Shown: positions 14,146 through 30,460, counted from the first letter of the stretch. The stretch: DNA of 64,000 nt from a virus (IMGVR_UViG_3300037852_000186:35975-99974), one strand, 5' to 3'. Notes: generated by a model not told the origin, from the letters alone. Translations and numbers: made by a program.

Positions 14146-14459
14146 TGAATCCGATGCGAGCAACCGAAGCTGGTAGGGCATCAGACAGACGAGATAACGC
14201 ACGCCGAAGGGCTGCGTTAAGTTCCGAACAGGCAACGCTGACAGCCGCCGAATGGACAGACATCCGCGAACGCCACAAATATCGCTGCCATTGGTGTAAG
14301 AAAAAGTTCAAACGCCTGACTCAAGACCACGTTATCCCTTTGAGTAAAGGAGGGTTGCACGTTAAGGAAAACGTGGTTCCGTCGTGTCTTTCTTGTAATT
14401 CTGCGCGAGGTAATCGGCTACTACACATCAAGACTGGTCAATACTTACTCGCAGTCTAG
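14145..14459 (+). CDS. HNH endonuclease
   Basis: CHWC...LTQDHVIPLSKGGLHVKENVVPSCLSCNSARG. Confidence 0.9.
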   Translation: MNPMRATEAGRASDRRDNARRRAALSSEQATLTAAEWTDIRERHKYRCHWCKKKFKRLTQDHVIPLSKGGLHVKENVVPSCLSCNSARGNRLLHIKTGQYLLAV

Positions 14460-16084
14460 AACGTGCCGTGCTTTGGTAGCCCGTGTCCCCTCCGCCCGCT
14501 ACTTCCCCACGCCCGTTCGCTGCCACGATAGTCTTCCTCTAAGTCGCGCTGGCGCTGGGGATCATAAGCAACGGGGATTTGACTACCGGGGGTGATGTAG
14601 GCGTATTCCTGGCGCTGCCCTTGGTAGCTGGCATAAAGCGCGAGCGCGCCAGCAATCGCTGAGTCACCGTGGCGCATTCCGGCGCCGCTAGTTTCCTTCG
14701 ACCTTGATTCTGGCACGCGAGCAACGCCCTTCTCCATGCGCAGCATCCGATGGTCTGCCAGTATATCGGCGTCCTTTGGCAGCGTTATCATGTCGTCCTC
14801 GAAGGCCGCCTTGTACTTCGGCATTTGTTCGCGATACCACTCGATGTTCATAACGACCGGCGTAATCAGCCCTGGCCGCTCCTTCGTACCGCCGTAGCGC
14901 AACCCCGCAACCTCTGCGAGAAACGCGCCGTTGCCCGAGGCGTCCATCGCGCCGCCAATGAAGCGCGTGCCGGCGCGCAGACGGTCTACTATCGTGAACA
15001 GAATCTCTTTCTGCTTCTCGTACTCCACGTCGCGAAGCTCCACAACGAACGCCGTGCGCCGCTTCGTGTTCTGCTCAATCTGCAATACCCAAATAACCGT
15101 TAGGTCTCCGCTGCGACCGAAGTCAACACCAAAAATCGACATTTGGTGAGGATGCAAAGTGCGCAGCGCCATATCCAGCCCCGGCCAGATTTGGTCTAAC
15201 GCTGTGGGGCCTTTGCCGCGAAGTACCGGGATGCCCTCGCGCATCTGGCGCTCGATTAGCGCGGCAGAGAGGAAGACACCGCCTGATTCGGATGGGATAA
15301 CGAGAAGTTCTTCGTCCGCATTCTCTCGAAAGGTAGCGAACAGCTCCGCACGATACTGTGCTTCATTCTGAGAAGTCGGTTCTTCGTGACGAAGCGGCGC
15401 GGCCACACGCTGGTAGTATCCATCGGCTAAGGCATCGTCAATTGTGACCCTATGCAGCGAGTAGCTGTGCGACATTCGGCCAGCTCGGATATCTGTAACC
15501 AAAGTATTAAAAGGCGAGGTCGCGCCGTTGTGCGTAGAGATGATATGCACATGCCCACCAAGCTGAGTGAAAGCGAGAGCAGCTTTTAGTACGTCAGCTA
15601 AGCGGTCGTGAAATGCGGCCTCGTCGATAATGACCAGCTCCCCAGGACGGCCCCGCGAACGGATAGAACGTGCGCGAGAAGTTAGACCATAGATTTTGTG
15701 CCCCGAAGCAAATTCAACATGGTATGCGTAGACCGACTCATGCGCCTCGTCGTCCTGCTCCCAAAGTGTCTGCCCAGCTTGGCGTGCCTGCGCGTTTAGA
15801 GTAATCGCCCATTCTTTAACGTCGTGGTCAATCCACGCACGGGCCGCCTCGAAGTTATAAACCATATAGAAAACATCAGCCCCATCTTGACCCGCAGCAT
15901 TAAGGACTGCCCGCGCCGCTTCTGCCCAGCTTATTCCCACTCGGCGACTTTTTTCGCAGACAACGATAGGGTGATCGTCAGCAAGGAAGCGCTTCTGATA
16001 GTCAAGCAGGATGTTGCCCAAGGATGGGCTCGGTTGAGGAATAGGCGGTAACTGGACGAGCTTAGGGCTTGGCTTTGGCGGCAT
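14456..16084 (-). CDS. terL: terminase large subunit (Mu gp28-like)
   Basis: LLDYQKRF, EKSRRVGISW (Walker A-like), VIIDEAAFH (Walker B), IISTHNG, GVDFGRSGDLT, HGDSAIA nuclease motifs. Confidence 0.95.
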   Translation of the reverse strand: MPPKPSPKLVQLPPIPQPSPSLGNILLDYQKRFLADDHPIVVCEKSRRVGISWAEAARAVLNAAGQDGADVFYMVYNFEAARAWIDHDVKEWAITLNAQARQAGQTLWEQDDEAHESVYAYHVEFASGHKIYGLTSRARSIRSRGRPGELVIIDEAAFHDRLADVLKAALAFTQLGGHVHIISTHNGATSPFNTLVTDIRAGRMSHSYSLHRVTIDDALADGYYQRVAAPLRHEEPTSQNEAQYRAELFATFRENADEELLVIPSESGGVFLSAALIERQMREGIPVLRGKGPTALDQIWPGLDMALRTLHPHQMSIFGVDFGRSGDLTVIWVLQIEQNTKRRTAFVVELRDVEYEKQKEILFTIVDRLRAGTRFIGGAMDASGNGAFLAEVAGLRYGGTKERPGLITPVVMNIEWYREQMPKYKAAFEDDMITLPKDADILADHRMLRMEKGVARVPESRSKETSGAGMRHGDSAIAGALALYASYQGQRQEYAYITPGSQIPVAYDPQRQRDLEEDYRGSERAWGSSGRRGHGLPKHGTF

Positions 16085-16196
16085 TCTTACGTCCGTTGGC
16101 CCGCGCCGTTTCGGCCTTACGCGGCGACTTAACCTTCCCGCCGAGCCGCCCGAGGGCGATGGCGGCGGGGTTTTTTAGTTTAGTCGGAGTGGCCAA
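16062..16196 (-). CDS. 44-aa basic KNPAAxALGxxGG-type protein (putative DNA-binding)
   Basis: translated by hand: MATPTKLKNPAAIALGRLGGKVKSPRKAETARANGRKNAAKAKP (TTG start). Confidence 0.6.
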   Translation of the reverse strand: MATPTKLKNPAAIALGRLGGKVKSPRKAETARANGRKNAAKAKP

Positions 16197-16601
16197 TCAA
16201 TTCACCATCTTCGTCGTATTGATGGATATCGCAGCCCGTCCATCCGAGGACTTCTACAATCTCGGGCGTCTCACCTATCGGCGAATTGTTGCACCTCATA
16301 ACGACAGCCTCGCAACCGCATTTCATCGTCGCGTATTGCTCGCCGTCGATGACATCGCGGGAATCGGGAATGCGCCCCGGCGCACTTTCAAAGCACTCTT
16401 TGGCTAGTCGATCTTGATCCATGAGCGCATCGTACACTCAAGCGCTTGGCATGTCCAGTGGAAGATGGCGTGTTCGATTTACGATCAGAATTGAGCTTGT
16501 TCGCGGGCGGGGTCGCGGATGTTAGGAGTCCGAGTCGTTGCTAGTGCCATCAGCTCGCCTATCGATACCCTTATGTGGATATCGGCATGGCCCCCGCAAC
16601 G

Positions 16602-16793
16602 CTAAAGATATTCTGCCGCATATCGGACCTTCGTAAGTAGTACCTGGCGGATCACGTCTTCAATCTGAAGCTTCGACATTCCATAGTCAGACGCCATTTG
16701 TTCCAAGGAATCTCTGCGCATGAATCGCGCAACGATGCGCGCATTGCGGTCCCGCAGGCGTTGGACCGTATCATCAGTCGTTGTGTTTACCAT
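16602..16793 (-). CDS. Mor-like small HTH regulator
   Basis: RDRNARIVARF...SLEQMASDYGMSKLQIEDVIR. Confidence 0.55.
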   Translation of the reverse strand: MVNTTTDDTVQRLRDRNARIVARFMRRDSLEQMASDYGMSKLQIEDVIRQVLLTKVRYAAEYL

Positions 16794-17289
16794 TGCGTCC
16801 TCCCAGCAGCTCCGCGCGCTTATCATTAATGGTCAGCGGCTCGCGGCGCACTGGCTGAACCTCGATAGAGCGCTCGTCGGTCGGTTGCGCCGCTTGCAAT
16901 TGATTGAGCAGGGTCTGGCGGAGCAACGAGACGAGGTCGGAGGATAGACCAGCTTGGCGTATCGTTTGGCTCGGGGTTTCGGACTCGGAGGGCTTCGTCC
17001 AGCCGCACCGCCGTTCGAGAAAGAAAGCTTTGTCAGGGAATGAACCGGCCAAGGCGTCTTGAACTAAACGGTCTGATACTAGAGATTCAATCTCGGCTTT
17101 TCCTTTTTGTAAGGCTTCCGCAAAATGCGCATAATCACGTTTCCGTTGATAGAGAGTCGTAAGAGAAATATCAAGCACACTAGCGATTTTCTCTTGGGTC
17201 AGCCCCCGCCCAGCAAGCGTCCTTACTTGCGCTAGATCGGGGGGTTCCCATCGCGGTCTGCCTCTTGGGCGTTTAACTTCAGTATCCAT
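16774..17289 (-). CDS. terS: terminase small subunit
   Basis: GRP...N-terminal HTH...FAEALQKGKA...FFLERRCGW; upstream of TerL. Confidence 0.75.
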   Translation of the reverse strand: MDTEVKRPRGRPRWEPPDLAQVRTLAGRGLTQEKIASVLDISLTTLYQRKRDYAHFAEALQKGKAEIESLVSDRLVQDALAGSFPDKAFFLERRCGWTKPSESETPSQTIRQAGLSSDLVSLLRQTLLNQLQAAQPTDERSIEVQPVRREPLTINDKRAELLGGRNGKHND

Positions 17290-17389
17290 AATAAAAGCCG
17301 CCGCCCCTTACCGTAGCACGGGCGCGGTGTCGGCCCAATAGACAGGTGGGTGGTTGACAAACGTCGTCAGTGTGTGCAAGTATGCAGTT

Positions 17390-17563
17390 ATGCAAGCACA
17401 AAGCATTATGAACGTTCAGATAAGAATGTCGCCAGAGCTGCGAGTAGAGCTGGGACAACTTGCACTTTCACGTAACGCCAGCCTAAACGCCACGATTTGT
17501 GAACTACTCGAACGGGCCGTTAAGGTCCTCAACGCTACTAGCCCTCGAAAGGGAACAGAATAA
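17390..17563 (+). CDS. Arc/ribbon-helix-helix protein
   Basis: VQIRMSPELRVEL...A...NASLNATICELLE; TTGACA promoter upstream at 17354. Confidence 0.75.
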   Translation: MQAQSIMNVQIRMSPELRVELGQLALSRNASLNATICELLERAVKVLNATSPRKGTE

Positions 17564-17853
17564 ATGGCAATACCTTTAGTGCGAGAACAAGCGGGCTCCC
17601 TCTACGCCCGATTTCAAAGCAGCATGAATAATCCAACCCAAGCCTGCCAGCCAGCGAAAGGGAACAGAATGAGAACGACAAAGCCCAAGTTTGAAGTCTA
17701 TCTCGGCGGCGAATGGTGCCGCACCACGCAAGCCACCATTCAGTCTAGCGGCTGGCTCCATTACGAGTTGAGAGATCGAACCATCGGCCTCATGCCGCCT
17801 AAGAAGTGGCGCCTTGTCGAAGCCAACGCTACTAACCGAACCAAGGAAACCAC

Positions 17854-18138
17854 GTGAAAACGAATCTGAAACCATGTAGAAAATGCGGCAGAGAAGTCGC
17901 GATAGGCGCAACTATTTGCCCCGGTTGCGGAGTGCTGGGTCCCGCGCCCTGGATGCCCTTCTCACCGTGGTATGCAGTCGGCGGCTTTGTTGTTTTAGTT
18001 GTGTCGTTGGCGTCTGTTGGTCGGATAAAAACACATTGCGAACTAACCGAAGGCTCAGCAATCACGCTGGGCCTTTTCATTTCCCTTCTGGCACCAGCTT
18101 CGCCAGCATCTCACGAATGTGCGCGTCAATCATCGTAA
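17854..18138 (+). CDS. zinc-ribbon membrane protein
   Basis: CRKCG...CPGCG followed by a hydrophobic segment. Confidence 0.5.
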   Translation: MKTNLKPCRKCGREVAIGATICPGCGVLGPAPWMPFSPWYAVGGFVVLVVSLASVGRIKTHCELTEGSAITLGLFISLLAPASPASHECARQSS

Positions 18139-18652
18139 TCCGAATCCCCGAAGCGTGCAGATACTCGTAGAGGATTAGATGGTGGCAGCGCTCTTCCGGC
18201 GTTGAGTCCTCTACGAGCTTACGAACGGCATCTTCTATCTTTTTCCGCTTCGCTAGGCGCTTCGCGACAGTGTCTGGCGATACCATCAGTTCGGCAATTC
18301 CTTCTCTGCGTGCGCCGCCATCTCGTCGCCTGCCCGCAACTCCGCAATCAACTCGTCTTCGCTGGCGTAGGCATGCAAAGCGTGCGAGAAAATGCGGCCC
18401 GAGGGATCACGAAAGGCTACCCAAAGATCGGCCATCGAAGAGAAGCCGTCGGGCGAAATGCCGATAACGTCGTCGCAGCCGACTGTCCCGTCGTCGTGCT
18501 CGGGACAGGGTTCGGTGGTGTGTTCAACGCGCCATGCAATGATGCGAACGGAGAAGAGTTGACCGTCGAGCCAGCCGAGATTCCACCAGCCGTGTTCGCG
18601 GGGTAGGACGGTTGCGGGTTCTTTCTTTTTCAAAGCAGTTCTCCTTGTTGCG

Positions 18653-19618
18653 TTAGTGTCCCATTCCGCGCGATTGCCCGTACTCTCGGCTACGCCCATA
18701 TTTATAATCATCGTCCTCGAAAGATCCCACTTTCGGGCTTCCGTCATGCTCGTATGTGGGCGTCGGCGTGAGGCCAATTCCTAGCTGCAAGTCGCGTTCT
18801 TTCCATTGCTGTTTAAGATAATTCATGTCGAAGGTTCCGCGCGCACGACGGTCAATGACCGATGCTAAGTTCGCCGCGTGTGGATGCCAACCGTGCGCTG
18901 AGATAATCTGCTCGATTTGTTCTTTACGCTGCGAGAATGCACGGATATGAAGGCGGTCGTATCCAGCTAATTCCCATTCGCCTTTCGCGCTGGTGGTTTT
19001 GATGTCGTACCCCAATTGCTTAACGCGATACTGCATCTCCTCTCGATAGACGTTAGTGCCTTGCTGGCTGTGTCGAAAGATCTGGTATTTGTCGAGCGCT
19101 CGCCACTCACCATCCGGACGCTGCGTCATGTTCATTAGAACAACGTGCGTGTGAACTTGCGGATCGGGCAGTTGCAGACCAACTGGTCGTGCGAGCGTGT
19201 GCTGGAAGGATGCTGCCACGAGCTTGCCAGTAATCGTAGAGTATTGACCGTGATGACTCACCATCGCATAGCGTTCCATGTGGTAGAAGGCTGCTTCTGC
19301 TGCGGCAGCATGCGCTGGAATCAGCCGCTCGTCTCCGCGTACAAGGGCCTGAATCGAAATGGACTTGGGAGCAGAGTACCCTACTTGCCAGCCGGCGCGG
19401 TGTTCCGTCCCTTCGCGAGTCGCAACAAGCAACCCCCCGAATGGACTATAGCCACGGAGCGCGCAGCCAAAATCAAATCCATTAGCACGCGCGTCGCCGA
19501 TCAATCCGAGGCTCTCGGCACCATGTCCAATCCACTGACCGACTTCGTTGATGAAATATCTTTGCGTTCCCGTTGCGGTCAGTGGCACTGGCGAGATCGT
19601 CATCAAGTGGGGCAACAC
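18653..19618 (-). CDS. MobF (TrwC/TraI-type) relaxase, relaxase domain only
   Basis: N-terminal RYF, WIGHGAESLGL, SAPKSIS, FQH...DPQVHTH (3H motif), NMTQRPDGEWRAL, FSQRKEQIE; no helicase domain. Confidence 0.92.
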   Translation of the reverse strand: MLPHLMTISPVPLTATGTQRYFINEVGQWIGHGAESLGLIGDARANGFDFGCALRGYSPFGGLLVATREGTEHRAGWQVGYSAPKSISIQALVRGDERLIPAHAAAAEAAFYHMERYAMVSHHGQYSTITGKLVAASFQHTLARPVGLQLPDPQVHTHVVLMNMTQRPDGEWRALDKYQIFRHSQQGTNVYREEMQYRVKQLGYDIKTTSAKGEWELAGYDRLHIRAFSQRKEQIEQIISAHGWHPHAANLASVIDRRARGTFDMNYLKQQWKERDLQLGIGLTPTPTYEHDGSPKVGSFEDDDYKYGRSREYGQSRGMGH

Positions 19619-19621
19619 CTC

Positions 19622-20209
19622 CTAGAATAGAGTGATACGCCTAGAACCTTTCGCGGAATTGCAAGGCCGACAGGCAGCAACCACGTTTTCTTTAACGTGC
19701 AAACCACCCTTGCAAAGTGGAATTACATGGTCCATCGTAAGGCGTTTGCATTTTTTCTTGCACCAGTAACAGCGCCCCTTCGCTCGCGATAAAATCGCGC
19801 GCCATTCACTCCTAGCTAGAGTGGTTACGGGGGTTGCATATTTTCTAGCTCGCCGCCGTTGGTCATCTATTACGCGTTGTTCTTTGTTACGATCCGAACT
19901 GCGATAAATCAGAGAGCGTAAGGAATGCTTACGCCATGTATTGAAATATAATCGTCGCGGAGCGGTGGCGTTGTAATGTCGACGAGTGGATACGCCTTTT
20001 GGTGAAGACCTGTATCGTTTTCTGGTTAAGACTCCGCGTTGCGATTGACCGTATCGTTGCGCTGCACGAGCCCAGCTTTGCTTAGTCGCGATTATCTTAC
20101 AGGCTGGACAAAATGCTGGTCTCCTAAGTCCTTTTGTAATGACGACTGCTGGAGCTTGGCATCGAGGACAATCTCTTAATAGACCTGGAAATATACTTTC
20201 ACCTGGCAT
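19622..20209 (-). CDS. HNH endonuclease
   Basis: CYWC...LTMDHVIPLCKGGLHVKENVVAACRPCNSAKG. Confidence 0.9.
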   Translation of the reverse strand: MPGESIFPGLLRDCPRCQAPAVVITKGLRRPAFCPACKIIATKQSWARAAQRYGQSQRGVLTRKRYRSSPKGVSTRRHYNATAPRRLYFNTWRKHSLRSLIYRSSDRNKEQRVIDDQRRRARKYATPVTTLARSEWRAILSRAKGRCYWCKKKCKRLTMDHVIPLCKGGLHVKENVVAACRPCNSAKGSRRITLF

Positions 20210-20215
20210 ATTGTT

Positions 20216-21967
20216 TTATCGAGGCAAGAACCCCGCGATGTTTTGAATCATATGTGCCTCCTCGATCTTAATTGGCGCGCGGTCACGACCAGCGCAACAG
20301 AGATAGCCGTGGAAGCGTTCAAGGAGAAGCAATTCCGCTGGCGTAACCAAATGACGGCTGAGCCGATGCGGCGCGAGATTCAGCCCTTCCCGATAGTCGC
20401 TAACACCCGTGACCATCGTAGTATCGAAACGATCCGCTTCTTGGCTGTTTAATACTTTGCTCGCCCATTCTGCTGTTTCGGCTCCTCCACATTGCAAGAT
20501 GACTTTAGTCGCCGCACCGTTGGTGAGCACGCTTGCTTCATCGCGTCCGTAAATTCGATTAAGCTGGGCGACATCCTGAAAGCCGAGGTATACAGCGATG
20601 CCCCTCTTTCGCCCCCGCGCGATAGCCTTCTCAACATTGCTCTGGTGACCGAGACTCGGAAGTTCGTCGAGCATAACATGAACCCGTTGAGTATAAGTTT
20701 CTTGAAACATTAGCCATCTAATCAGTGTGTCGATCCAAATGGCTTGCAGGGGAAAAAGGGCGTCCTTAGTGTCTTCACTAGAAGTGAGGAAAATCCATCC
20801 TTCTGGTTTAGCCGCCCATTCGCGAGCACTCCACGTGCGCGCGCCTTGTGTCGGTAAATGATAGAACGGTTTGAGTGCGTTCGACGCGGTCGCGACGATT
20901 CCAGAACCTTGGTCGTGTGCTTGCGGATCGATTAGGTTATACGCAGCATCTGTGAGCACGCCTCGATTGGCTCGAAACTGTTTCTGCATCTCGATACGCG
21001 GCATCGCAAGAAATGAGTGCAAGGCTGGAATGTCCCTCGCTACTGCGAAGATACCTTCAATCAAAGTACGCGCTGATAGACGGAAGAATTCACCTGAGTC
21101 GCTAGCAGCTCCTCTCGGATTCGGTCGAACAAGAGAAGCAGCCATCGCTTGTACATCAACCTCGAACATGGTGGGCCGGAACTCGAACCAAGGCGTCCAT
21201 CTCAGATCGTAACGCTGGTCGAATGGATTGAGAATGATGTCGCTCGGCTTGTAGAACTCTTGAACAAATTCACAATCAGGATCGAAAATAACCGCGATTT
21301 CTCCACGCTGCCGAATCTGTCGGAGAAGATGACGAAGAATAGTAGACTTGCCCATGCCAGATTTGCCAGCGATAAGCATGTGCTCGGTTTCGATGTTAGG
21401 TTCTAGGGTGACATCACCGATACGCAGCCCGGTTGATACGGGCGCCTTGGGTGTGACGTACGGGCGGACTCGCTGCCAGTATGAACGCCATCCGTGTATC
21501 CGATAGTTAAGCGCGGACGCTGAAATCATTTGAACTCCTCGAATGTGTTGCAGCTCCTTTGCGCTTCGTTGTGCGAAGAGTGCAACTCCAATGATTGCGA
21601 TTGGCGGTAACAGTGGCCAGCCCCAACAAGATTGTACACACCACGCCGGAAAGCTTTGATGATAGCCGGCTGGACCGGATAGCCATGCACTCAACGATCC
21701 AAGTTCATACCATTGTCTGTTGAAGGGGACGGGCGCATTGGTGAGGTATGTACCGACAAATGGAATATTCGCGATCAAGCTGTACGGCGCCCACGACCAG
21801 AAATATACATGATGTAACAGTGGATAAGTTCTTCGCCACACAACGATAAGCGTGCAAACTACCCAAGCCAGCAGCGCACCACGGAAGATTTTGCTCCATA
21901 TACTGCTGGCCATCCGACCCATAATTCCGACGGCTTGTAGTCGCGCAATTCCAGCCGAATATGCCAT
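20216..21967 (-). CDS. type IV coupling protein (TraD/TrwB family)
   Basis: two N-terminal TMs, HMLIAGKSGMGKS (Walker A), IFDP, LNPFDQR, MLDELPSL (Walker B), GRKRG, GFQDVAQL...YG. Confidence 0.93.
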   Translation of the reverse strand: MAYSAGIARLQAVGIMGRMASSIWSKIFRGALLAWVVCTLIVVWRRTYPLLHHVYFWSWAPYSLIANIPFVGTYLTNAPVPFNRQWYELGSLSAWLSGPAGYHQSFPAWCVQSCWGWPLLPPIAIIGVALFAQRSAKELQHIRGVQMISASALNYRIHGWRSYWQRVRPYVTPKAPVSTGLRIGDVTLEPNIETEHMLIAGKSGMGKSTILRHLLRQIRQRGEIAVIFDPDCEFVQEFYKPSDIILNPFDQRYDLRWTPWFEFRPTMFEVDVQAMAASLVRPNPRGAASDSGEFFRLSARTLIEGIFAVARDIPALHSFLAMPRIEMQKQFRANRGVLTDAAYNLIDPQAHDQGSGIVATASNALKPFYHLPTQGARTWSAREWAAKPEGWIFLTSSEDTKDALFPLQAIWIDTLIRWLMFQETYTQRVHVMLDELPSLGHQSNVEKAIARGRKRGIAVYLGFQDVAQLNRIYGRDEASVLTNGAATKVILQCGGAETAEWASKVLNSQEADRFDTTMVTGVSDYREGLNLAPHRLSRHLVTPAELLLLERFHGYLCCAGRDRAPIKIEEAHMIQNIAGFLPR

Positions 21968-22583: not shown

Positions 22584-23128
22584 TCGGGACTCCTAATGTG
22601 AGGAATTCGCAGCGCTTCCAAGTAAGTTTTCATGTAATCGGCGTCACGTTCGCTGAGGATTCGGATAGCTGCTTGAACGGGGCCGCCAAACAAAACAGCG
22701 ACAACCGCGAGATGCCAGTTCAGGTTCATCAGGGCCCACAATCCTAAGAGCATGGTGATGCTGATATTGATCTGGGAGAGTTCCCGTTCGCCGCCCATGA
22801 GGAGCTTGTCTTTTTGCAGACAGGTAAAAACCCTATGTCCAGAGCCGCTGTGCCCACTGGTGGAAGGTGATGGCGTGCTGCCGATGGATGTTGCGAGCTT
22901 GCCCTTTGGGCGTTGGACGGGTGGTCCATACTGGCGTTTTTGAACTTGGGACTTTGTAGGTTCTGGAATCAATGCGCCAGTTGGAATGGCTGGTGGAGGA
23001 CTAACCGCTGGTGCCGGCGCGAGTGGTCGCGGTCTCCCACCGGAGAGTTCCCAGTTGTCCGCTGGAATGCCATCCCCGCTGCTAGCCCATGCCTGATTTC
23101 CTAAGTAATGATCGCCTCTGTCGTACAA
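22580..23128 (-). CDS. VirB3/TrbD-like protein with long Pro-rich N-terminal extension
   Basis: HRVF...KLLMGGERELS + 2 TM + ERDADYMKTY is the TrbD pattern. Confidence 0.75.
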   Translation of the reverse strand: MYDRGDHYLGNQAWASSGDGIPADNWELSGGRPRPLAPAPAVSPPPAIPTGALIPEPTKSQVQKRQYGPPVQRPKGKLATSIGSTPSPSTSGHSGSGHRVFTCLQKDKLLMGGERELSQINISITMLLGLWALMNLNWHLAVVAVLFGGPVQAAIRILSERDADYMKTYLEALRIPHIRSPE

Positions 23129-23148
23129 TGAGCGAGTCCCCCTATTTA

Positions 23149-23574
23149 TTAGCTGGCATTACCGATGTTGGCCTTGAGGCGATGATACCGTCGGTTCGCA
23201 GCAGCTCTGTGGCAAACGCTGCATCTTCGGTGTCCCGTTTTTTTGTTGACTATATCGAGCGGATGGCCATGTATGCAGAGGCCATTGCGTATAGGTCTTC
23301 GGCCAGCAATTTGTTCTTTCGGTGTTGCCCACCTACAATTTGACGGTTCATAGTTACCGTTCGGATCTGGATACCGGTCTAACGTCTTGCCTACTGGCCG
23401 TTCATTCATATCAGCTAGAAAGTTGGCAAAGTCGCTCCATCGTTCGCAGATAGTTATGCCCCTCCCTCCATAAAGATCGTAATGGACATGTTTAGGATTG
23501 AGACAACGTTCCCGCATGTGAACCCAGCTTCGATAAGTGGGTGTGTCTGTATGTCGATGTGTGCTACGGCCCAT
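23149..23574 (-). CDS. HNH homing endonuclease
   Basis: TYRSWVHMRERC...YGGRGITICERW...F-x-x-F-LADM...TLDR...GNYEPSNCRWAT. Confidence 0.9.
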   Translation of the reverse strand: MGRSTHRHTDTPTYRSWVHMRERCLNPKHVHYDLYGGRGITICERWSDFANFLADMNERPVGKTLDRYPDPNGNYEPSNCRWATPKEQIAGRRPIRNGLCIHGHPLDIVNKKTGHRRCSVCHRAAANRRYHRLKANIGNAS

Positions 23575-23585
23575 TATTACCCCTA

Positions 23586-25988
23586 TCATGCGGCTTGTGG
23601 TTGCCCCCTGCCCGTAAGCCACATCTCAAGAAAATCTCCGCCTTGCTCCAGCAGTTGCCGCGCCGCCTGTACGTCCTGATACCCCGTAGAAGCACAGATT
23701 TTCTGCCCAGTCGGCCCTAATGCTAAGGTGAACATTCGAGACCCGATAGACGACTTAAAGTAGTAATCCTGTCGCGCTACAGCGTTCCCTATACGATTAA
23801 GCTCATGATCGTTGAGACCTATCTGGGTGTAGGCTTCGCGCACATAGGTGCTACTACGCAGGGCCGAATTCGGCAGGAAAATTTGCGCTGGCGCACTCTC
23901 CAATAGCAACGGCCCAAAGGGGCTGTTCACTATTTCCCCGGCCGATTGGGTAGCGCCAACGAAGCCACAATTGCGCTTGCGCATGGTCCGTATGGAGTCG
24001 AAGAGCCATTCCGCTGAGACTTCATCTCCGAGCATGTTCCAGAATTCGTCAGCAAATATCCAAGCAGGGGACACGCCGTCTAATGATGAAACGATCGAGT
24101 GCAGGATGAGTTCGGTTGCGGGCGCCGAAGCCCGCTTACCGAGACCTTGAAGTCCGCGCATCTCGAATACACGGAGTTGAATGTCGGCGTCAGTTTGGGG
24201 CTCGCCGTTAAAAATGTGCTTCCAGTAAGTGGTGTAGTGTCGAAGGATTCGACGGATGCGTTGTTGTTCGCCAGGGATAATCGCGAACAGTCCGCTCATG
24301 GTCCGAATGCCTTGACGTTGTGCTTGGCGAAGTCGAGAGGCGAACTCTTCGGATTGGTATTCGTCGAGTTCAAATTTACCGACACCATAATCTCCCGGCC
24401 ATCGAGCAAAAAGTCGTTCAAACCAACCAAAGAGCCATTCGACGCCGTCTTCCTTGTCGAGCATGGCCAGTGGGCAGAGGGCTGGAGTATTCTGAGCGCC
24501 CATATCCCGGTAGTCTATCCCGAGTAGATGGGATAGCACGAAGGACGAGTAATCGAGGTCGAGCCATGCGATCCTGACTTTGGGTATTCCGAGGTAGGCG
24601 CAGACCATAGCGGCGATAAGTGAGCTTTTGCCACTACCCACGGGGCCCAGGATAAGCTGATTGGCGACTCCACCGATATGAGTTGGGAAATAAAAAGGTT
24701 CCGAGCCTGTGCCACCACAAACCAATGGCGCTGGCGTTTGTGCAGGCAGCATAGGGCTGTGAATATAGGGAGTTCCTTCCCAATATTTTGCGGGTATCGC
24801 CAGGTCTGCGAAGTTCTCACCAGTGAGCGGAATCTTGTGGCGGTTGGCCTCGTGCTCGTCCGACCTCATCGTCAAATAACCTGGCAAAGTGGTCCTAATT
24901 GCTTTGGCCGCGCCGATGGTTTCTGGGCGACACATGACGCCCTTTCCTTGCAGGAGACCTATGAGGGTGTGCATGCGGTAGTCGGCCTCTGCGGGGTCGC
25001 GGTCGCGAACGATAGCAACACATCCTACGGTGCCAAAGCTGGTGCCGTCCTTAGAAGCGTTGATAGCTTCTTGGATTTCCGCGATCTGCTCGTAGGCATG
25101 CTGAGTGTTTTCTTTCTTGGCGCCAAAGAAGGACTTGATGATTTCGATGAAGTCGCCGATGGCCGTTTGATTCCAAAACGGTTTTTCTTTTTCAAGCTTC
25201 TTTTGGGCATCGTAGGGGCTGAGGCAGCGGTAACGAATGCTGAGGGTGAGATAACCGGGATGCTGCAAGAGGATAGAGAGCATCTGGGGTAGGGTCTCGC
25301 TCGGGTATGCGGTAATGACGATGGGTCGAAGGTGCCAGCCGTTTATCACGGGATAGAGGCCGTTTACTTGCCATTCGCAGGCGATGGCCTGGTTGAGTCG
25401 GACGTGAGGCTCGGGAAGCACAGCGGGGTAATCGTGGTAGGTGACGAGATGGAGGAGATCGCGGAACATCTCAAGGTTCGACATGGGTTCGAGTCCGACA
25501 GCGCCCTTGACTGCGTCCTCGATAGCCTGAAAGCGGCCGAGCGCGTGCGCGCGAAGCAAGTCGTGGTTGCTCAAGTGCTGCGGCTCGTTTCCCCCGAGGA
25601 GGATAGCTCGAACCGTATTCTTGATGGGCGGCCCGAACTGATGGGAAAGATAGAGACGGGTCGGGGTAATCCAGTGTTCTTCGGCCGCGAACCGCTCGCG
25701 GATCTCGGCCATGACAAGCGCGGCGGCAGGACGCGCGTAGTGTAGGTCGGGCGGCAAGGGTGCTGGCTGACGGTCGAAGACGACTTGAATGGCGTCGCCG
25801 GTACGCAAGTGGACTGGTGACCTTCCGAATTGTTCGGCGCGAGCCAGAAGCTTGGCCGCGTCGTCCGAATCGGGCGATGGGCCGATGAGCCGATAGCCTT
25901 TGACGATGCCGTTATCGCGCTCGTCTATCACGCCTTCGTGGCCTTTGAGGAATTGACGGTATGGAAGTGAGTCGGCTAGTGTGGCCAT
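23586..25988 (-). CDS. VirB4/TrbE ATPase
   Basis: LADSLPY, LILGPVGSGKS (Walker A), WIFADEFW (Walker B), RKRNCGFVGATQS, IFLPN. Confidence 0.93.
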   Translation of the reverse strand: MATLADSLPYRQFLKGHEGVIDERDNGIVKGYRLIGPSPDSDDAAKLLARAEQFGRSPVHLRTGDAIQVVFDRQPAPLPPDLHYARPAAALVMAEIRERFAAEEHWITPTRLYLSHQFGPPIKNTVRAILLGGNEPQHLSNHDLLRAHALGRFQAIEDAVKGAVGLEPMSNLEMFRDLLHLVTYHDYPAVLPEPHVRLNQAIACEWQVNGLYPVINGWHLRPIVITAYPSETLPQMLSILLQHPGYLTLSIRYRCLSPYDAQKKLEKEKPFWNQTAIGDFIEIIKSFFGAKKENTQHAYEQIAEIQEAINASKDGTSFGTVGCVAIVRDRDPAEADYRMHTLIGLLQGKGVMCRPETIGAAKAIRTTLPGYLTMRSDEHEANRHKIPLTGENFADLAIPAKYWEGTPYIHSPMLPAQTPAPLVCGGTGSEPFYFPTHIGGVANQLILGPVGSGKSSLIAAMVCAYLGIPKVRIAWLDLDYSSFVLSHLLGIDYRDMGAQNTPALCPLAMLDKEDGVEWLFGWFERLFARWPGDYGVGKFELDEYQSEEFASRLRQAQRQGIRTMSGLFAIIPGEQQRIRRILRHYTTYWKHIFNGEPQTDADIQLRVFEMRGLQGLGKRASAPATELILHSIVSSLDGVSPAWIFADEFWNMLGDEVSAEWLFDSIRTMRKRNCGFVGATQSAGEIVNSPFGPLLLESAPAQIFLPNSALRSSTYVREAYTQIGLNDHELNRIGNAVARQDYYFKSSIGSRMFTLALGPTGQKICASTGYQDVQAARQLLEQGGDFLEMWLTGRGQPQAA

Positions 25989-26413
25989 ATTTGAGTCACC
26001 TTCCCTGCTACAAGACTGAGCGGTAACCAACATAAATACCGACTGTCCCAACTGTCTGGGTCGTTCGTACCCATACCGAGAAACATCTCAGGCGGTACGG
26101 TGTAGCTGCCGAATGGGCAGACCCGCGCGAGTCTGGGCTCCGGGGCGCTATTCGGTATCAGTTTGCCCTCGCGGTACACGCCTTCGGGCGCGAACCGCAC
26201 GTGATCGCCCGGTAGGGCGAGCGCTCTTTTAATTGGCATCCGCAGCAGCACGAGGTCGCCATAGCGCACCTTGGCGATTGGCTTGATTCGATAGACGCCG
26301 ACTGGGGTCGCGCTATCGGAGACGTTGAACGTAAGGTTCCCCATCAACAGAAGGACTAGGCCGCCAAACAGGACCAGGCGAGTTGGGAACCACTTGAGGA
26401 GCGTTGTAAACAT
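25976..26413 (-). CDS. TraF-like S26 peptidase (pilin maturase)
   Basis: NVSDSATPVGVY (Ser), IKRALALPGD (Lys), DSWDSRY. Confidence 0.85.
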   Translation of the reverse strand: MFTTLLKWFPTRLVLFGGLVLLLMGNLTFNVSDSATPVGVYRIKPIAKVRYGDLVLLRMPIKRALALPGDHVRFAPEGVYREGKLIPNSAPEPRLARVCPFGSYTVPPEMFLGMGTNDPDSWDSRYLCWLPLSLVAGKVTQIWPH

Positions 26414-26765
26414 TTGGTTTCTCTTCCCGGTTGTCAGCGCCGGCCCCGGTACGAATAGCCGTTAGGTAGCGCTGTAGAACCTCATTTGCTGCCTCGATAC
26501 AGGGCTGGCAGGGGGTTGGCTTCGCCTTGGGGGTTGGCGTGGCTTGTAGGGGCGTTATCGGCAGTATTTTGGTTAGCGAAGGCGTGGGGATAGGGCTTGG
26601 CGCCGCTTGGAAGTGCGTGACTGGCACCTCGGGGATCGAGGCGTTGGCGTGCCAGAGATGCGGCCAAATGATGATGCCAAGGAATACGCTAATGATGAAG
26701 CCAATCCCGATTTTCGCAAGTCGCCGACTAACTTTAGTGCCCGGTGCGTTAGTATTGGTGTTCAT
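26313..26765 (-). CDS. VirB10/TrbI N-terminal fragment (TM plus Pro-rich stalk), apparently truncated
   Basis: KVSRR-TM-Pro-rich layout and position after trbG; no beta-barrel domain; runs 101 nt into traF. Confidence 0.5.
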   Translation of the reverse strand: MNTNTNAPGTKVSRRLAKIGIGFIISVFLGIIIWPHLWHANASIPEVPVTHFQAAPSPIPTPSLTKILPITPLQATPTPKAKPTPCQPCIEAANEVLQRYLTAIRTGAGADNREEKPNVYNAPQVVPNSPGPVWRPSPSVDGEPYVQRLR

Positions 26766-26974
26766 TGCGGCGCCACCGTTGCTAAACACTGAATGTAATA
26801 GTTGCCATTCGGCTCCTGCCGAAGTGTGCCGTAGCCGGATGGGCATTGCGGATAGGTTTGCACTTGTGCCTGCGGGTTGGCTTGGTTGTGGAAAGTCTGG
26901 ACTTGGGAATATGTTGAGGTCCCTAAACCAACCGCGCTAAGCAGCATGCCAAAAATGCTTATGATTGCACTCAC
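26762..26974 (-). CDS. small secreted protein in the T4SS cluster
   Basis: N-terminal hydrophobic segment, two Cys. Confidence 0.5.
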   Translation of the reverse strand: MSAIISIFGMLLSAVGLGTSTYSQVQTFHNQANPQAQVQTYPQCPSGYGTLRQEPNGNYYIQCLATVAPQ

Positions 26975-26985
26975 CGAATCACCTC

Positions 26986-27678
26986 CTACGGAGCTTGCTG
27001 TCCTGCTTTGATAGCCGCATCGCGCGCCGCCGCCTGCGCCTTAACCAAACCTGGGTAGTAGAATTCGATTGCTTGCGTGAAATTTTTCGTGCCTTTTATT
27101 TCCTTCACGGGATTAAATACGTAGTTATTGCCAGCAGATGTCTGAATGGCCAAATTTGTAACCATGTCAGGCTCTGCCGGAATTCTGACTGGCGCACCGG
27201 GGACCGTGATAGCTGTAGTTGAGGCCAACGGAAAGACCAGTACGCTATGCTCCCCGACGATAGTGCCCCATCGTTCACGGTCACCGATTTTTACATTGTC
27301 CTTCGATGTAGTTTCATCGTCGCGCAGGCGGATTTGCGTTACGTGTAGCTTTTGGCAATTGAGCGGATATGCAACGTCGGGACTGTAGGGATAGATCACG
27401 GTTATCCCGTGCTGTAAAGTTGGGGTCTGATTGTGCTTGATTGCCTCCGCCACGTCCGACGATAGGGAAGCATACGGATCTGGGATCGGAACCGGCGTAG
27501 GCGCCGGCGTCGGGACTATGACTGGTGCTGGCGGTGGAGTAGCAGCGCACCCGGTAAACAGACCGACTCCTATAACCAACGCAGTAATTCCGAAAAGAAA
27601 AACAAGCGCAGCGCAAGCACGTTTGTTGATCACCGTTGAACCTCCCAAGCGTTCTGCTGTAGGAATTCTTGTTCTCAT
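26986..27678 (-). CDS. VirB9/TrbG-like lipoprotein (N-terminal domain only)
   Basis: lipobox FTGC; IYPYS...LNC...VTQIRL...E...IGD...W...TNLAIQT; ends before the usual C-terminal domain. Confidence 0.75.
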   Translation of the reverse strand: MRTRIPTAERLGGSTVINKRACAALVFLFGITALVIGVGLFTGCAATPPPAPVIVPTPAPTPVPIPDPYASLSSDVAEAIKHNQTPTLQHGITVIYPYSPDVAYPLNCQKLHVTQIRLRDDETTSKDNVKIGDRERWGTIVGEHSVLVFPLASTTAITVPGAPVRIPAEPDMVTNLAIQTSAGNNYVFNPVKEIKGTKNFTQAIEFYYPGLVKAQAAARDAAIKAGQQAP

Positions 27679-28304
27679 TGGTGGACTTCGGCTAAGTCGA
27701 TTTCGTCGACGAAAAGTCCTAAACTCTCCGGGTCCTTAGAGCGCGCCACTATCACATGTAAAACCGCGCGCCACTTTTGGGTGGTACGTGCTTGGTCGTT
27801 GCGATCGTGCGTGACAGTGTTCCAATCGGCCTGGTAGGTGTCTTTTTCTGCTAGTTTGAGGGTGTCAGTGACCGATGTTTCTATCCAACTATAAGGCCCG
27901 ATAGACTTCGGGTGGTGCTTGCCGCCATCGCGGTTGTACCAGCCGTCGAGCTTTTGCGCGGCCTGCCCGGTGACCATCGCTTGGGTTTTGTTGTAGAGGT
28001 AGTCTTCCTCGTCGGAGTCGCGGTCAACGGTGAAGGCATCATGGATGAAGTCGCCCAGCCGCGCCCGCAGAAAGGCGTCGGGGATGACTCGCACGCTGGT
28101 GACTGGGAGCACCTGTCCGACTGGCTCACCTTGGTTGTTCACTTCCAGCACGAAGGGGGGTGTTGGTGGTTGGAGGTCGAGGCGGACGCGATCTACGACC
28201 ATGCCGGCGAGTAACACAACGAGTGCGCAACCTAGCCAGAAAAGGGTCCGGTTCTGGTAAGCTATCAGCCGGTCTGTATACATCGGTTCTAGTGCAGCAG
28301 CCAT
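27675..28304 (-). CDS. VirB8/TrbF-like protein
   Basis: single TM, PFVLEVNNQGEP, TYQADW, PESLGLFVDEI. Confidence 0.8.
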   Translation of the reverse strand: MAAALEPMYTDRLIAYQNRTLFWLGCALVVLLAGMVVDRVRLDLQPPTPPFVLEVNNQGEPVGQVLPVTSVRVIPDAFLRARLGDFIHDAFTVDRDSDEEDYLYNKTQAMVTGQAAQKLDGWYNRDGGKHHPKSIGPYSWIETSVTDTLKLAEKDTYQADWNTVTHDRNDQARTTQKWRAVLHVIVARSKDPESLGLFVDEIDLAEVHQ

Positions 28305-28425
28305 TTGAGTAACTCCACCACTACTATCAGCGCAACGAAACCAAACCCGTACCAGCGGTTGATAAGCATGCCGCTCGCCGGATAAATAATGAAGAAAGAT
28401 TTATGTGTTTTGTTGGTGTTCATTG

Positions 28426-29337
28426 TTAGATTTTAGTAATTACCCTCACGCTACTCCGCGCGAGTGTCGCGCCCACCGCGAACGCCGCTTCGGCACCCTC
28501 TCCGCCGCTGTGCCCTACTCCGCTGGCCCCCTTGGACATGATGAGTTGCGCCGCTTTCTTGGGCAGGGTCCACATCGCATAGAAAAAAATAACGGACTCC
28601 ACGAGTTGCATGGCTCCGTATTGAATCTGGTTTTTGTTCATAGTGAGGCCAAGGTGGGCCTCACTCGCAGTCCAAAAATGGGCCAAGGTTGTGCCGATAG
28701 CAATTACCAGCATGGCTGCGAGAAGGCGGATGCTAACTTGAAGCAACGTAATCGCCCAATTTTCAAGAATCGGCCAGGTCCGGTCGAAGGTTGCAAAGCA
28801 GATGGTGATAGGCCCCTTGGCGACATACCATTTAACTTCGATGAGTATCCAGAGATAGATACAGCCAGCCGCGAACCAGCAGATTTGCGTAGCAATGATA
28901 AGTAGGACAAACTGGAGATCTGCAATCAAATCGAACCACGCACCAAGGGATCGGGCGTGTATCATCATACTTACGATTCGCAAGCCCATCTCGTAGAGTC
29001 CGGACGGTGTCGTGGTATAAGGCGATACCCCCGAGACGCTGGTCCCGACTATTGTTCCCCAGAGCGGAAAGGCACCGCCCCAGCTCTCGATATTCTCCAT
29101 AACCGCATAGACGAGAAATATCCGTACAAGTCCCCAGCCGAAGGCCATAAGCGTGCCATACCAATCTTGATTCGATACGGCCTGAATAAGAGCGTAACCG
29201 AAGCCGACGAACGTAATCGACCAAAGCATGCGGAGGCCCCAGACGAGCAAGAGCGGGAAGTACATCTGAATGGCGTTAAGGAAATCATTCAGTGCCCCGT
29301 TGAGGATTCCGTCGGTAAGTAGTCCAGTATCCGGCAT
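28426..29337 (-). CDS. VirB6/TrbL-like polytopic membrane protein
   Basis: DTGLL...F, TPSGLYEMG, multiple TMs, IEVK...GPI...F, LPKKAAQLI, Gly/Ala-rich tail. Confidence 0.82.
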   Translation of the reverse strand: MPDTGLLTDGILNGALNDFLNAIQMYFPLLLVWGLRMLWSITFVGFGYALIQAVSNQDWYGTLMAFGWGLVRIFLVYAVMENIESWGGAFPLWGTIVGTSVSGVSPYTTTPSGLYEMGLRIVSMMIHARSLGAWFDLIADLQFVLLIIATQICWFAAGCIYLWILIEVKWYVAKGPITICFATFDRTWPILENWAITLLQVSIRLLAAMLVIAIGTTLAHFWTASEAHLGLTMNKNQIQYGAMQLVESVIFFYAMWTLPKKAAQLIMSKGASGVGHSGGEGAEAAFAVGATLARSSVRVITKI

Positions 29338-29940
29338 TTAGCAGCCTTGGCGCGGCATTCTCGCCCGCACAATAGAATCAAGTTCGTGCAATCTATCTGT
29401 AGCTAGCACCATCGCTGTTGTGGCTTCCTGTGCGCGCAATAATTGCAGCTCCTTGATGATGGCGAGCCCGACCTGTCCGTTGGCTTGCGTGGCTGCTAGC
29501 TCAGCGGGCGCTTGGACGTTGGCGGCAAGTGTGCTGAAGTCCTCGTTTTGCAATTCGGTGGTTAGCTGTTGGGTCTCGGAAATCGCAGTCTCGTAGGTGT
29601 TCATCAGTGCCGGGGCGATTTGATTCACCATCGGAGTGTAACTGTCGCAGGGTAAGCCTTGCGTAACCGGGAATATTTGAGCCACATTCGACGGATTGAT
29701 GTTATTGAAAAGCGTCGAGAGGTTGCCTAGTAGAGAGGTTTGGGGTTGATACCATGCACCGACGCTGGTAGTCAGCGAGGCTTCAACTGGCGGGTCGGAA
29801 GTTACAGAGCCAGGGACCGTGATGACGGGTATTGGTCCGGTTGGGACTTGCGCTAATAAAGTTGAGGGAATCCACGCTGCCACGGCCCAAACCGTGACAG
29901 CGAAAATTACCTCCCTTTGCCCTTTCGGGAATTGTTTCAT
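29338..29940 (-). CDS. TrbJ/VirB5-like secreted protein
   Basis: signal peptide; ELAATQANGQV...ELQLLRAQ resembles the TrbJ C-terminus; directly upstream of trbL. Confidence 0.6.
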   Translation of the reverse strand: MKQFPKGQREVIFAVTVWAVAAWIPSTLLAQVPTGPIPVITVPGSVTSDPPVEASLTTSVGAWYQPQTSLLGNLSTLFNNINPSNVAQIFPVTQGLPCDSYTPMVNQIAPALMNTYETAISETQQLTTELQNEDFSTLAANVQAPAELAATQANGQVGLAIIKELQLLRAQEATTAMVLATDRLHELDSIVRARMPRQGC

Positions 29941-29949
29941 TAGGCTTGG

Positions 29950-30315
29950 TTAGCCCGCCAACCGAGTAGCTGCGTGGATGGCGAGGTGTGCCATTGGATG
30001 GCTAGCCGCAGAGTGTATGAGGGCCGCTCCAGCGCCCCCGAAACTCGGCGCGATAACGGCGTAGTTACTAACCACAGCACCGCCGAACGCGGCGAGCCCC
30101 AAGTGTTCTGCCGCTCCAAGCCAACTGCCGCTCCGGATATGATGGATGATTCCAACGGTCCCGACTCCGCCAACGATGTATCCGCTGGCGCGCGCTACAG
30201 CACCCAAGGTGTTGAGCGCCCCGTCAACCGAAGCTACACCCGAGGTGGCCGCAGCGGCAGCGCCCGCTACAAGTAACAGCGGGGTTAAGGCAATTAATAC
30301 TTTACCGATCTTCAT
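29950..30315 (-). CDS. VirB2/TrbC-like pilin
   Basis: signal peptide plus two Gly/Ala-rich hydrophobic helices; near the start of the T4SS operon; TraF maturase present. Confidence 0.65.
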   Translation of the reverse strand: MKIGKVLIALTPLLLVAGAAAAATSGVASVDGALNTLGAVARASGYIVGGVGTVGIIHHIRSGSWLGAAEHLGLAAFGGAVVSNYAVIAPSFGGAGAALIHSAASHPMAHLAIHAATRLAG

Positions 30316-30460
30316 AGAAACAGCAGTCTCCTTGTTACGTAATGGCCAGTTGACCCGGCCTAGTAACCATTTTCATCGACACCCCCACCAGTAGCGCCAC
30401 AGCAATGCTCCAAGCCCGACAATAACCAAGGCAATGAGCAGAGCCTTCACGTTGTCGAAG

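Follow-up and report, generated by a model that had tools for sequence, protein, structure and literature searches.

Conjugation genes within a tailed-phage-like record

The DNA analysed here (the window, 64,000 nucleotides) is the last 64 kb, positions 35975-99974, of the 99,974-bp metagenome-derived IMG/VR virus record IMGVR_UViG_3300037852_000186, and the subject of the analysis is an 11.7-kb block of conjugation (tra) genes that lies among the genes of a tailed phage. The record is classed as linear, with a CheckV completeness estimate of 100%; no terminal repeats were found in its 99,974 bp and, three short matches excepted, no internal repeats of 24 nt or longer. Nearly all genes are on the minus strand, where integrase, recombination and replication genes are followed by the tra block and then by the genes for the small and large terminase subunits (TerS and TerL), a Mu-like head and a contractile tail. 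The record holds an integrase, a single copy of an attachment (att) site-like sequence and the tra block, and most of the element consists of phage genes.

An earlier sequence-only reading had assigned the block to a relaxase, a type IV coupling protein (T4CP) and genes of a type IV secretion system (T4SS), on the same strand as TerS. Profile matches bear out most of these gene classes, all encoded on the minus strand, the proteins in the VirB2 and VirB5 positions being the ones that lack such support. The genes are as follows (coordinates are those of the window; GC3 is the GC content of third codon positions).

29950-30315, minus: protein in the VirB2 position, 121 aa, with a signal peptide, Gly/Ala-rich; 71-78% identical to the first tra gene of relatives
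29338-29940, minus: secreted protein in the VirB5/TrbJ position, 200 aa; 57-79% identity in relatives
28426-29337, minus: VirB6/TrbL; Pfam TrbL, 38.8 bits; TIGR02783
27675-28304, minus: VirB8/TrbF; Pfam VirB8, E = 5e-15
26986-27678, minus: VirB9, N-terminal domain only; Pfam CagX, 4-108 of 198; TIGR02781, 33-146 of 248
26313-26846, minus: protein in the VirB10 position, 177 aa, with a transmembrane segment and a Pro-rich stretch; 55-74% identity in relatives
25976-26413, minus: TraF-type S26 peptidase; Pfam, E = 1e-11; TIGR02771
23586-26051, minus: VirB4 ATPase, Walker A motif GPVGSGKS; assigned by the names of homologues, with weak Pfam matches
23149-23622, minus: 157-aa gene inserted between virB4 and virB3; GC3 0.468; present in no T4SS relative
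22580-23128, minus: VirB3/TrbD-like protein; Pfam VirB3, E = 9e-5, below the cut-off; 50-57% identity in relatives
20216-21967, minus: T4CP, Walker A motif GKSGMGKS; TrwB_AAD_bind, 3-386 of 387, E = 2e-75
19622-20209, minus: HNH endonuclease inserted between the T4CP and the relaxase; paralogue of the HNH gene at 14100-14459; GC3 0.388
18653-19618, minus: MOBF/TrwC relaxase, relaxase domain only, 321 aa; Pfam TrwC, E = 5e-57; PDB TrwC, E = 7e-39

The accessory genes are of an MPF type T-like set (MPF, mating-pair formation): the Pfam scores for TrbL (VirB6), VirB8 and CagX (VirB9) exceed their cut-offs, that for VirB3 (23.1 bits) lies just under its cut-off of 23.9, and the NCBIfam matches to TrbL, TrbF, VirB9 and TrbD are far under theirs. 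For VirB4, many of the 59 homologues found are named VirB4 or TrbE. The protein at 29950-30315 has no Pfam or NCBIfam match and is pilin-like by composition only; that at 29338-29940 matches no profile in either collection. A scan of 15.5-33.5 kb for promoters and terminators gave counts at chance level. The relaxase stop lies 1,363 bp from the TerS start, on the same strand, in agreement with the distance of about 1.4 kb given by the sequence-only reading.

Relatives of the tra block and its state of preservation

With an alignment of VirB4, 80 related T4SS loci were found on metagenome contigs. These loci share a conserved order: the 121-aa gene, the 200-aa gene, VirB6, VirB8, VirB9, the 177-aa gene, TraF, VirB4, VirB3, a variable stretch, T4CP and relaxase. 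The genes sampled in their flanks include those for an amidohydrolase, a beta-lactamase-fold protein, a TnpB-like protein, IS21 IstB and an NrS-1-type primase helper. Of 165 Binataceae genomes, 56 have a member of the VirB4 family, often within megabase contigs, so that these clusters resemble integrative and conjugative elements (ICEs); this tally and those of 120/165 and 160/165 given below include seven unpublished genomes (G019, G020, G103, G158, G163, G164 and G165), from which none of the loci singled out in this text is taken.

All the conserved tra reading frames of the window are open, VirB4 retains each of the 70 columns that are invariant in a 29-sequence alignment (70/70) as well as its Walker A motif, and the Walker A motif of the T4CP is kept too. 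Because of this, the block looks maintained rather than decayed.

The block is uneven in its resemblance to these loci. The mating-pair formation (MPF) proteins are 60-79% identical to their nearest relatives, the T4CP and the relaxase only 34-45%; the T4CP has a lower GC3 (0.51), and a 208-bp gap (21968-22175) splits the T4CP/relaxase part from the MPF part (22176-30315). The two parts may differ in origin. The better conservation of the MPF genes, together with the minimal relaxase, is what would be expected if the T4SS had been kept for another use, whether as a pilus or adhesin, for DNA release, for exclusion or for mobilising other DNA. However, an intact T4CP and a relaxase domain are retained, tightly packed with the MPF genes, no effector candidates are known, and we know of no precedent for a phage that keeps a T4SS for a purpose other than transfer; we consider such a use highly improbable.

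The short VirB9 is a property of the T4SS family, in which this protein has about 205-277 aa (230 aa in the window, where it matches only the N-terminal domain). In the VirB10 position, the family has a protein of 150-190 aa with a transmembrane segment and a Pro-rich stretch, and no VirB11 was found. The canonical outer-membrane core thus seems, judging by these proteins, to be absent across the whole family and not only here.

Two small genes elsewhere in the window also have counterparts beside tra clusters. At 39239-39433 lies a gene for a 64-aa Zn-ribbon protein, 74% identical over 35 aa to the product of the gene just after the relaxase in one related locus (L030), and at 39615-39809 a 64-aa reading frame with, by eye, a helix-turn-helix (HTH) of the excisionase family, 43% identical to the product of the gene just before the first tra gene in another (L027). 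Their homologues flank the tra cluster in the ICE relatives; in the window the two genes are adjacent, 9 kb from the tra block.

Boundaries, composition and age of the block

The sequence-only reading had found no duplication bounding the tra cluster. This does not hold, as an imperfect 14-nt direct repeat sits at both exact limits of the block:

30327-30340, minus: left copy, ACGTAACAAGGAGA, 11 nt upstream of the start of the first tra gene
18640-18653, minus: right copy, ACGCAACAAGGAGA, overlapping the relaxase stop codon

The two copies coincide exactly with the limits of homology to the ICE relatives, and the relaxase stop falls inside the right one. The 14-nt repeat (ACGYAACAAGGAGA) has exactly two occurrences, in the window and in the whole record alike; with one indel allowed, the similarity extends over about 20 nt. 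The upstream regions of the record, taken as 30-nt pieces, form 11,325 pairs, of which not one attains 13/14 matches, and the repeat word is absent from all 178 loci retrieved. For a discrete insertion, we regard the repeat as good evidence, though not as conclusive.

In composition, the block matches its surroundings and not its relatives. Its GC content is 0.540 vs. 0.53-0.545 elsewhere in the record, compared with 0.58-0.63 in the T4SS relatives and 0.60-0.625 in the closest phage relatives. GC3 is 0.617 for VirB4, 0.617 for TerL and 0.616 for the major capsid protein, and 0.72-0.80 for the orthologues in relatives. The tetranucleotide correlation of the block with the rest of the record (r = 0.889) is that of random pieces of the same size (0.893 ± 0.039).

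The HNH endonuclease inside the block (19622-20209) is 55-65% identical, over the catalytic part, to the one beside TerL (14100-14459). Neither these two genes nor the 157-aa insert are found in the 80 T4SS loci. For the 157-aa insert, the only leads are viral NUMOD/HNH clusters, with scores no higher than 0.87, and a PDB sequence search gave no match. At least four further HNH-type genes occur in the window, two recognised by profile (at 58012 and 40432) and two by sequence and paralogy (at 62842 and 63617). A 24-nt inverted match between 14355-14378 and 19679-19702 was considered as a structural repeat and rejected, being merely the conserved core of the two HNH paralogues.

The uniform composition, the shared HNH paralogues and the phage-type DNA on both flanks favour the view that the tra block and the phage part belong to one genome. 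The evidence also bears on an assembly chimera, in which a conjugative element and a phage of the same community would have been joined artificially. The record is metagenome-derived and without terminal repeats, and the same joins are seen in no independent record or relative: a Megablast comparison of 14-34 kb with phage and plasmid collections found nothing, the exact 38-nt junction word has none in IMG/VR, and IMG/VR scans with the single proteins VirB4, TerL and primase/helicase, like the VirB4 alignment, returned no close relative. On the other hand, given phage-type DNA on both flanks, an artefact would require two false joins; there are no repeats at the joins, the composition is uniform and unlike that of either set of relatives, the join at 17-19 kb is flanked by HNH paralogues, and the direct repeat bounds the block exactly. 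We judge a chimera to be very unlikely.

In a maximum-likelihood tree, VirB4 is sister to, and not nested in, a 14-member clade (support 100/99), to which it is 66-68% identical, the members being 80-88% identical among themselves. The capture of the block was probably an old event, with long residence in this genome, because the composition matches that of the record and not that of the block's own relatives, two phage-type endonuclease genes interrupt the block, and the 14-nt repeat bounds it. To judge from its gene content, what was captured is a fragment of an ICE and not an ICE, since it has no integrase and its relaxase is truncated. The sequence-only reading had allowed for a separate recent insertion: the block does look inserted and is absent from all accessible relatives, but it appears old and not recent. 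The same reading's description of the whole as a phage-ICE hybrid stands in part, in that both gene sets are contiguous and composition and HNH paralogues argue for one genome, whereas the tra block behaves as a discrete, bounded insertion derived from an ICE.

The best explanation of these observations, which we hold with moderate confidence, is that the record represents one real mosaic mobile element, with a tra fragment captured earlier from a conjugative island of Binataceae. The joins are known from one assembled record. The host element would be a tailed-phage-like element of Binataceae, at least 100 kb in size and integrase-bearing, with a Mu-like head and a contractile tail. The 11.7-kb fragment, extending from the first MPF gene through the relaxase domain, with the 14-nt direct repeat at its bounds, would have entered between the replication region and the packaging operon. 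After capture, the block would have evolved with the phage, its composition converging and homing-type endonuclease genes of the phage invading it.

Packaging, head and tail genes

The genes on the packaging side of the block, and one head gene at the far end of the window, are these.

17354-18138, plus: opposite-strand cassette of three open reading frames (ORFs) between the tra block and TerS; no Pfam match
16774-17289, minus: terminase small subunit; phrog_309, E = 2.7e-17
14456-16084, minus: terminase large subunit, Mu gp28 type; phrog_2, E = 2e-30; thousands of homologues
14100-14459, plus: HNH endonuclease directly after TerL, in the portal slot of relatives
10923-12740, minus: Mu gpI-like head protease/scaffold; Mu-like_Pro, E = 1e-55
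8189-9172, minus: Mu gpT-like major capsid protein; Mu-like_gpT, E = 4e-77
61344-62795, minus: MuF-like head morphogenesis protein containing an intein; located some 46 kb away from TerL and adjoining more HNH genes

A Mu gpG-like gene also lies beyond TerL, the sheath, tape measure and baseplate genes are at positions 1-36 kb of the record, and the tube protein was recognised by homology via phage relatives. TerL keeps every column that is invariant in a 32-sequence alignment, an indication that packaging remains in use. The cassette at 17354-18138 encodes a ribbon-helix-helix-like protein (by eye), a 97-aa ORF and a Zn-ribbon/transmembrane ORF. Within it, at 17530-17855, a 32-nt leader that ends in GAAAGGGAACAGAAT (repeat family D1) occurs three times, each time ahead of a small plus-strand ORF.

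The TerL alignment yielded 80 phage loci from IMG/VR, mostly from records of 27-44 kb. In the best of these (L091, L113, L128 and L089), TerL, the protease, the capsid protein, two neck/tail proteins, the sheath and the tube occur in the same order as here, with 42-59% identity. Their portal gene was the target of a dedicated search: the profiles PF06074, PF04860 and PF05133, as well as the portal sequence of the relatives, find nothing in the 99,974 bp, the stretch 13818-14459 after TerL included, while the positive control, the portal of L091, is recovered by PF06074 at E = 8e-103. Both ends of the record cut through element DNA, so that the portal may be encoded in sequence that the record does not cover. 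The ORF at the end of the window (63617-63961) was considered as a portal C-terminus and set aside; by eye its product looks like an HNH-type zinc-finger protein, and an HNH gene adjoins it.

A Mu gp28-type TerL is present in 120 of the 165 Binataceae genomes, mostly in single copy and with very uniform scores, for instance at G041:C1:1640001-1680000 (L179, L180) and G025:C1:2703001-2743000 (L181, L182). The chromosomal locus of G041 is syntenic with the virion genes of the record up to the baseplate, and TerL there heads a full portal-to-baseplate locus. In the reverse complement of that region (L179+L180, about 13906-27582), some 13.6 kb of unrelated DNA lies between the portal and the protease and capsid genes. 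This widespread single-copy locus could be a domesticated prophage or an element similar to gene transfer agents.

Replication genes and the integration site

The sequence-only reading placed phage replication and integration genes on the other side of the block, and PrimPol, primase/helicase, RecD-like helicase, RecT and one tyrosine integrase are indeed found there. In rising coordinates the order is PrimPol, a transposon, ThyX, primase/helicase, an ERCC4 nuclease, the RecD2-like helicase, RecT and the integrase.

31705-32574, minus: Prim-Pol; Pfam, E = 4.3e-21; PHROG DNA primase
32616-36651, plus: IS6-family-like transposon, 4.04 kb, with terminal inverted repeats of about 34 bp beginning GGTAGTGTCTCAGTTTG and an intact 8-bp target duplication, GAATAAAG
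46299-48761, minus: primase/helicase; PHROG 10537, 29234, 19930 and 239
49235-50950, minus: RecD2/TraA-like superfamily 1 helicase; Pfam AAA_19, AAA_30, HHH_RecD2, SH3_13 and UvrD_C_2
51846-52904, minus: RecT-family recombinase; Pfam RecT, E = 2.6e-12
54699-54751, minus: attP-like core: 46 nt from the 3' end of tRNA-Pro(GGG), reaching from the anticodon loop to CCA, and about 7 further nt; partial match to the Rfam tRNA clan
54898-56046, minus: tyrosine integrase, the only one in the record; Pfam Phage_integrase, E = 3e-20

The transposon, which does not belong to the tra block, accounts for a plus-strand island in this minus-strand genome. Along with its DDE transposase it contains an HTH-M78 regulator and two further ORFs, of 201 and 357 aa (Pfam DDE_Tnp_IS240, Peptidase_M78 and HTH_3). 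The idea that the HTH-M78 regulator is an ImmR/ImmA pair of ICE type and goes with the tra block was rejected, because the regulator is inside the transposon, which has its own inverted repeats and target duplication.

A six-frame search of the whole record with PF00589 gave one match, in line with the earlier statement that there is no second integrase. Integration at tRNA-Pro, which the sequence-only reading had also proposed, finds support in the att fragment, located about 150 nt downstream of the integrase gene and present as a sole copy in the record; as for a tRNA gene itself, ARAGORN finds none in the record, and Rfam at the gathering threshold reports nothing in the window. The fragment is 96-100% identical to the 3' part of tRNA-Pro(GGG) in 160 of the 165 Binataceae genomes, and one of these genomes (G138) contains a full tRNA-Pro, 42 kb of DNA, an integrase homologue with 46% identity and then a partial tRNA-Pro repeat. 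These sequence matches support integration at tRNA-Pro. The closest homologues of VirB4 and TerL come from soil metagenomes and metagenome-assembled genomes (MAGs) of Candidatus Binataceae, and an uncultivated soil bacterium of the Binataceae is the best explanation for the host.

In many Binataceae genomes, the 3' part of tRNA-Pro(GGG) is repeated 2-5 times at distances of a few kb to about 48 kb (for example, at G055:C1:3641400-3647194 and G121:C53:6960-13925), a pattern which indicates that this gene is a hot spot with arrays of integrated elements.

Such arrays bear on another reading of the record, namely, a composite chromosomal region in which several elements have accreted at tRNA-Pro, with 54699-54751 as an internal junction of the array and the hybrid reduced to adjacency and rearrangement. 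The frequent repeat copies, kilobases to tens of kilobases apart, the geometry in G138 (full tRNA, element, integrase, partial repeat), the content of the DNA to the right of the integrase (its own repressor, an early cassette and a lone MuF gene) and the commonness of phage-ICE tandems (PMC13651849) are all compatible with it. However, the tra block lies 24 kb from the att fragment, between replication and packaging genes and with phage-type genes on both sides; the record has one integrase and one att copy; and the right-hand MuF complements a left head module that lacks MuF, which fits a single circular map. We judge a composite region to be quite unlikely. The single att copy has genes of the element to its left and to its right, so that the simplest view of the record is that of an unintegrated form with attP; a junction inside a tandem array is less likely.

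The relaxase and the question of transfer

Alignment of the relaxase shows that the first Tyr (RYF) and the HxH motif (DPQVHTH) are kept. Its 321 aa compare with about 905 aa in the relatives, which have a helicase domain and two Tyr motifs, and no helicase remnant is present 3' of the ORF. The TrwC protein of R388 uses its first Tyr for the initial nick, and its function can be reconstituted from relaxase and helicase halves that are expressed apart. Because split halves can do so, the RecD2-like helicase at 49235-50950, which weakly resembles the helicase portion of the relatives' relaxases, is a candidate for supplying in trans what the relaxase lacks.

The top-scoring relative of both the relaxase and the T4CP of the window is a 601-aa ORF in a Binataceae MAG contig (L006:15181-16986, DATKML010000044.1), in which a TrwC relaxase domain is fused to the catalytic domain of a tyrosine recombinase. 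Residues 12-299 match PDB TrwC (E = 1e-49) and residues 410-571 the HP1 integrase (E = 1e-14); a helicase domain is lacking.

Several results weigh against the explanation by capture and maintenance in a single element. None of the phage genes of the record (TerL, TerS, capsid, HNH and others) has a homologue in the 80 T4SS loci, no tra genes are present in the 80 phage loci, and where VirB4 and TerL share a contig in the 165 Binataceae genomes they are at least about 137 kb apart. These three collections never link both modules, so that the combination is a singleton in the accessible data rather than a trait of a lineage. The direct repeat, moreover, is a post hoc finding. Profile searches with Pfam and NCBIfam found no match for the VirB10 C-terminal domain, the VirB9 C-terminal domain or VirB11, though the relatives are equally reduced. 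The second-Tyr loop and the helicase domain are missing from the relaxase in the alignment with its relatives; it has no close short homologue, the few short ones not exceeding 48% identity and being, for the most part, truncated where their contigs end; and no oriT was identified. The failure to detect a portal belongs here as well.

Some of these points fit better with inert cargo, i.e. an ICE or ICE fragment inserted in a phage (a nested ICE::Phage structure) that has lost its integrase, att sites, relaxase helicase and perhaps oriT, and that is decaying and transfers nothing. Nested structures of this kind are known (PMC13651849), a direct repeat bounds the block, two endonuclease genes are inserted in the operon, the relaxase is cut to 321 aa, without the second Tyr motif and without close short relatives, and the combination is found once. 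Against this, the tra ORFs are open, and the invariant residues of VirB4 and the catalytic motifs of the T4CP and the relaxase are kept despite time enough for full amelioration of composition; a dead block of 11.7 kb would be expected to gain stops or to be deleted from a size-limited phage genome. Inert cargo is a possibility that we regard as unlikely.

The best reading is that the captured block works at least partly, most plausibly by moving the excised element between cells. Int-mediated excision would come first, followed by relaxase nicking of an oriT; the nicked DNA would pass by way of the T4CP to the T4SS, and the helicase would act in trans, with the RecD2-like gene (49235-50950) as the candidate. 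The circular prophage would thereby gain a cell-to-cell route beside the virion route. In its full form, this would make a temperate tailed phage itself conjugative: a circle of about 100 kb, excised at tRNA-Pro, with a one-tyrosine relaxase domain, a separate RecD2-like helicase and a T4SS without the canonical outer-membrane core, spreading by virions, integration and mating. We put this full form forward tentatively and consider it unlikely. As to the three routes of spread envisaged by the sequence-only reading, the integrase with its tRNA-Pro att fragment speaks for integration, whereas spread by virions and by transfer is not shown, there being no detectable portal and a relaxase of only the 321-aa domain. 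Self-sufficiency is established for neither the virion route nor the conjugative route.

Comparison with known systems

Phage-ICE tandems, including nested ICE::Phage structures, were described from seven phyla in October 2026 (Huang et al., Sci Adv 2026, PMC13651849). That report lists ICEs inserted into phage genomes and names tRNA genes as common att sites; each case involves two bounded elements, usually with an integrase of their own, and the authors stress that these are not hybrids. The present element resembles such tandems in that a prophage and conjugation machinery occupy one co-transferable stretch. It differs from them in having a bare tra block without its own integrase, with a truncated relaxase and short-repeat bounds, located between the replication and packaging modules; in its ameliorated composition and the phage endonuclease genes inside the block; and in its uncultivated host phylum.

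The ICE/plasmid-type T4SS clusters of Binataceae and soil metagenomes (L006-L087, for example, L008, L015, L017 and L027) have the same order from the first MPF gene to the relaxase, an equally short VirB9 and an equally undetected VirB10 C-terminal domain. They differ in their relaxases of about 905 aa, the absence of HNH/NUMOD-like inserts and of phage genes in the flanks, and a GC content that is 4-9 points higher. Mu-like prophages of the FluMu gp28 type (L091, L113, L128 and L089; G041 and G025) have TerL, protease, major capsid protein, sheath, tube and baseplate proteins that are 40-62% identical and encoded in the same order. These relatives are 27-44 kb in size, have the Mu portal directly after TerL (PF06074, E = 8e-103) and carry no tra genes, whereas the record has at least 100 kb, an undetected portal, many extra ORFs in the virion module and the tra block.

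What defines phage-plasmids is that they have plasmid functions for replication or partition and live outside the chromosome (Pfeifer et al. 2021, PMC7969092). Like them, the element combines phage functions with functions typical of plasmids; unlike in them, no ParA/ParB was found here, and an integrase and a tRNA attP are present. Assignment to the phage-plasmids was considered and rejected: there is no ParB_N match, the only CbiA/ParA match is the P-loop of the T4CP, and the integrase and attP point to integration.

As outlined in PMC12934698, 'Hodors' are conjugative megaplasmids of more than 300 kb that carry intact prophages, and Phi1207.3 of S. pyogenes is presented in PMC4260502 as a 'conjugative prophage'. 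By these accounts, in both cases the prophage is moved by conjugation and not by infection, a feature with which the present element can be compared. In Hodors, as so described, the prophage is a passenger of the plasmid, whereas here the conjugation genes are passengers of the phage; for Phi1207.3, the abstract of PMC4260502 mentions no T4SS.

Implications

It is customary to regard phages and conjugative elements as distinct vehicles, each with a host range of its own. If the mating apparatus of this element works, the lysogenic host range of a phage would become separable from its infective host range, and a phage with such an apparatus would blur the classifiers used in mobilome surveys (geNomad, CheckV and CONJScan). 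The 321-aa relaxase domain and the RecD2-like helicase offer a concrete candidate pair for a split relaxase function. Even as cargo, the block would be a case of MPF, T4CP and relaxase-domain genes captured and, probably, long kept in a phage genome, in a poorly known soil phylum.

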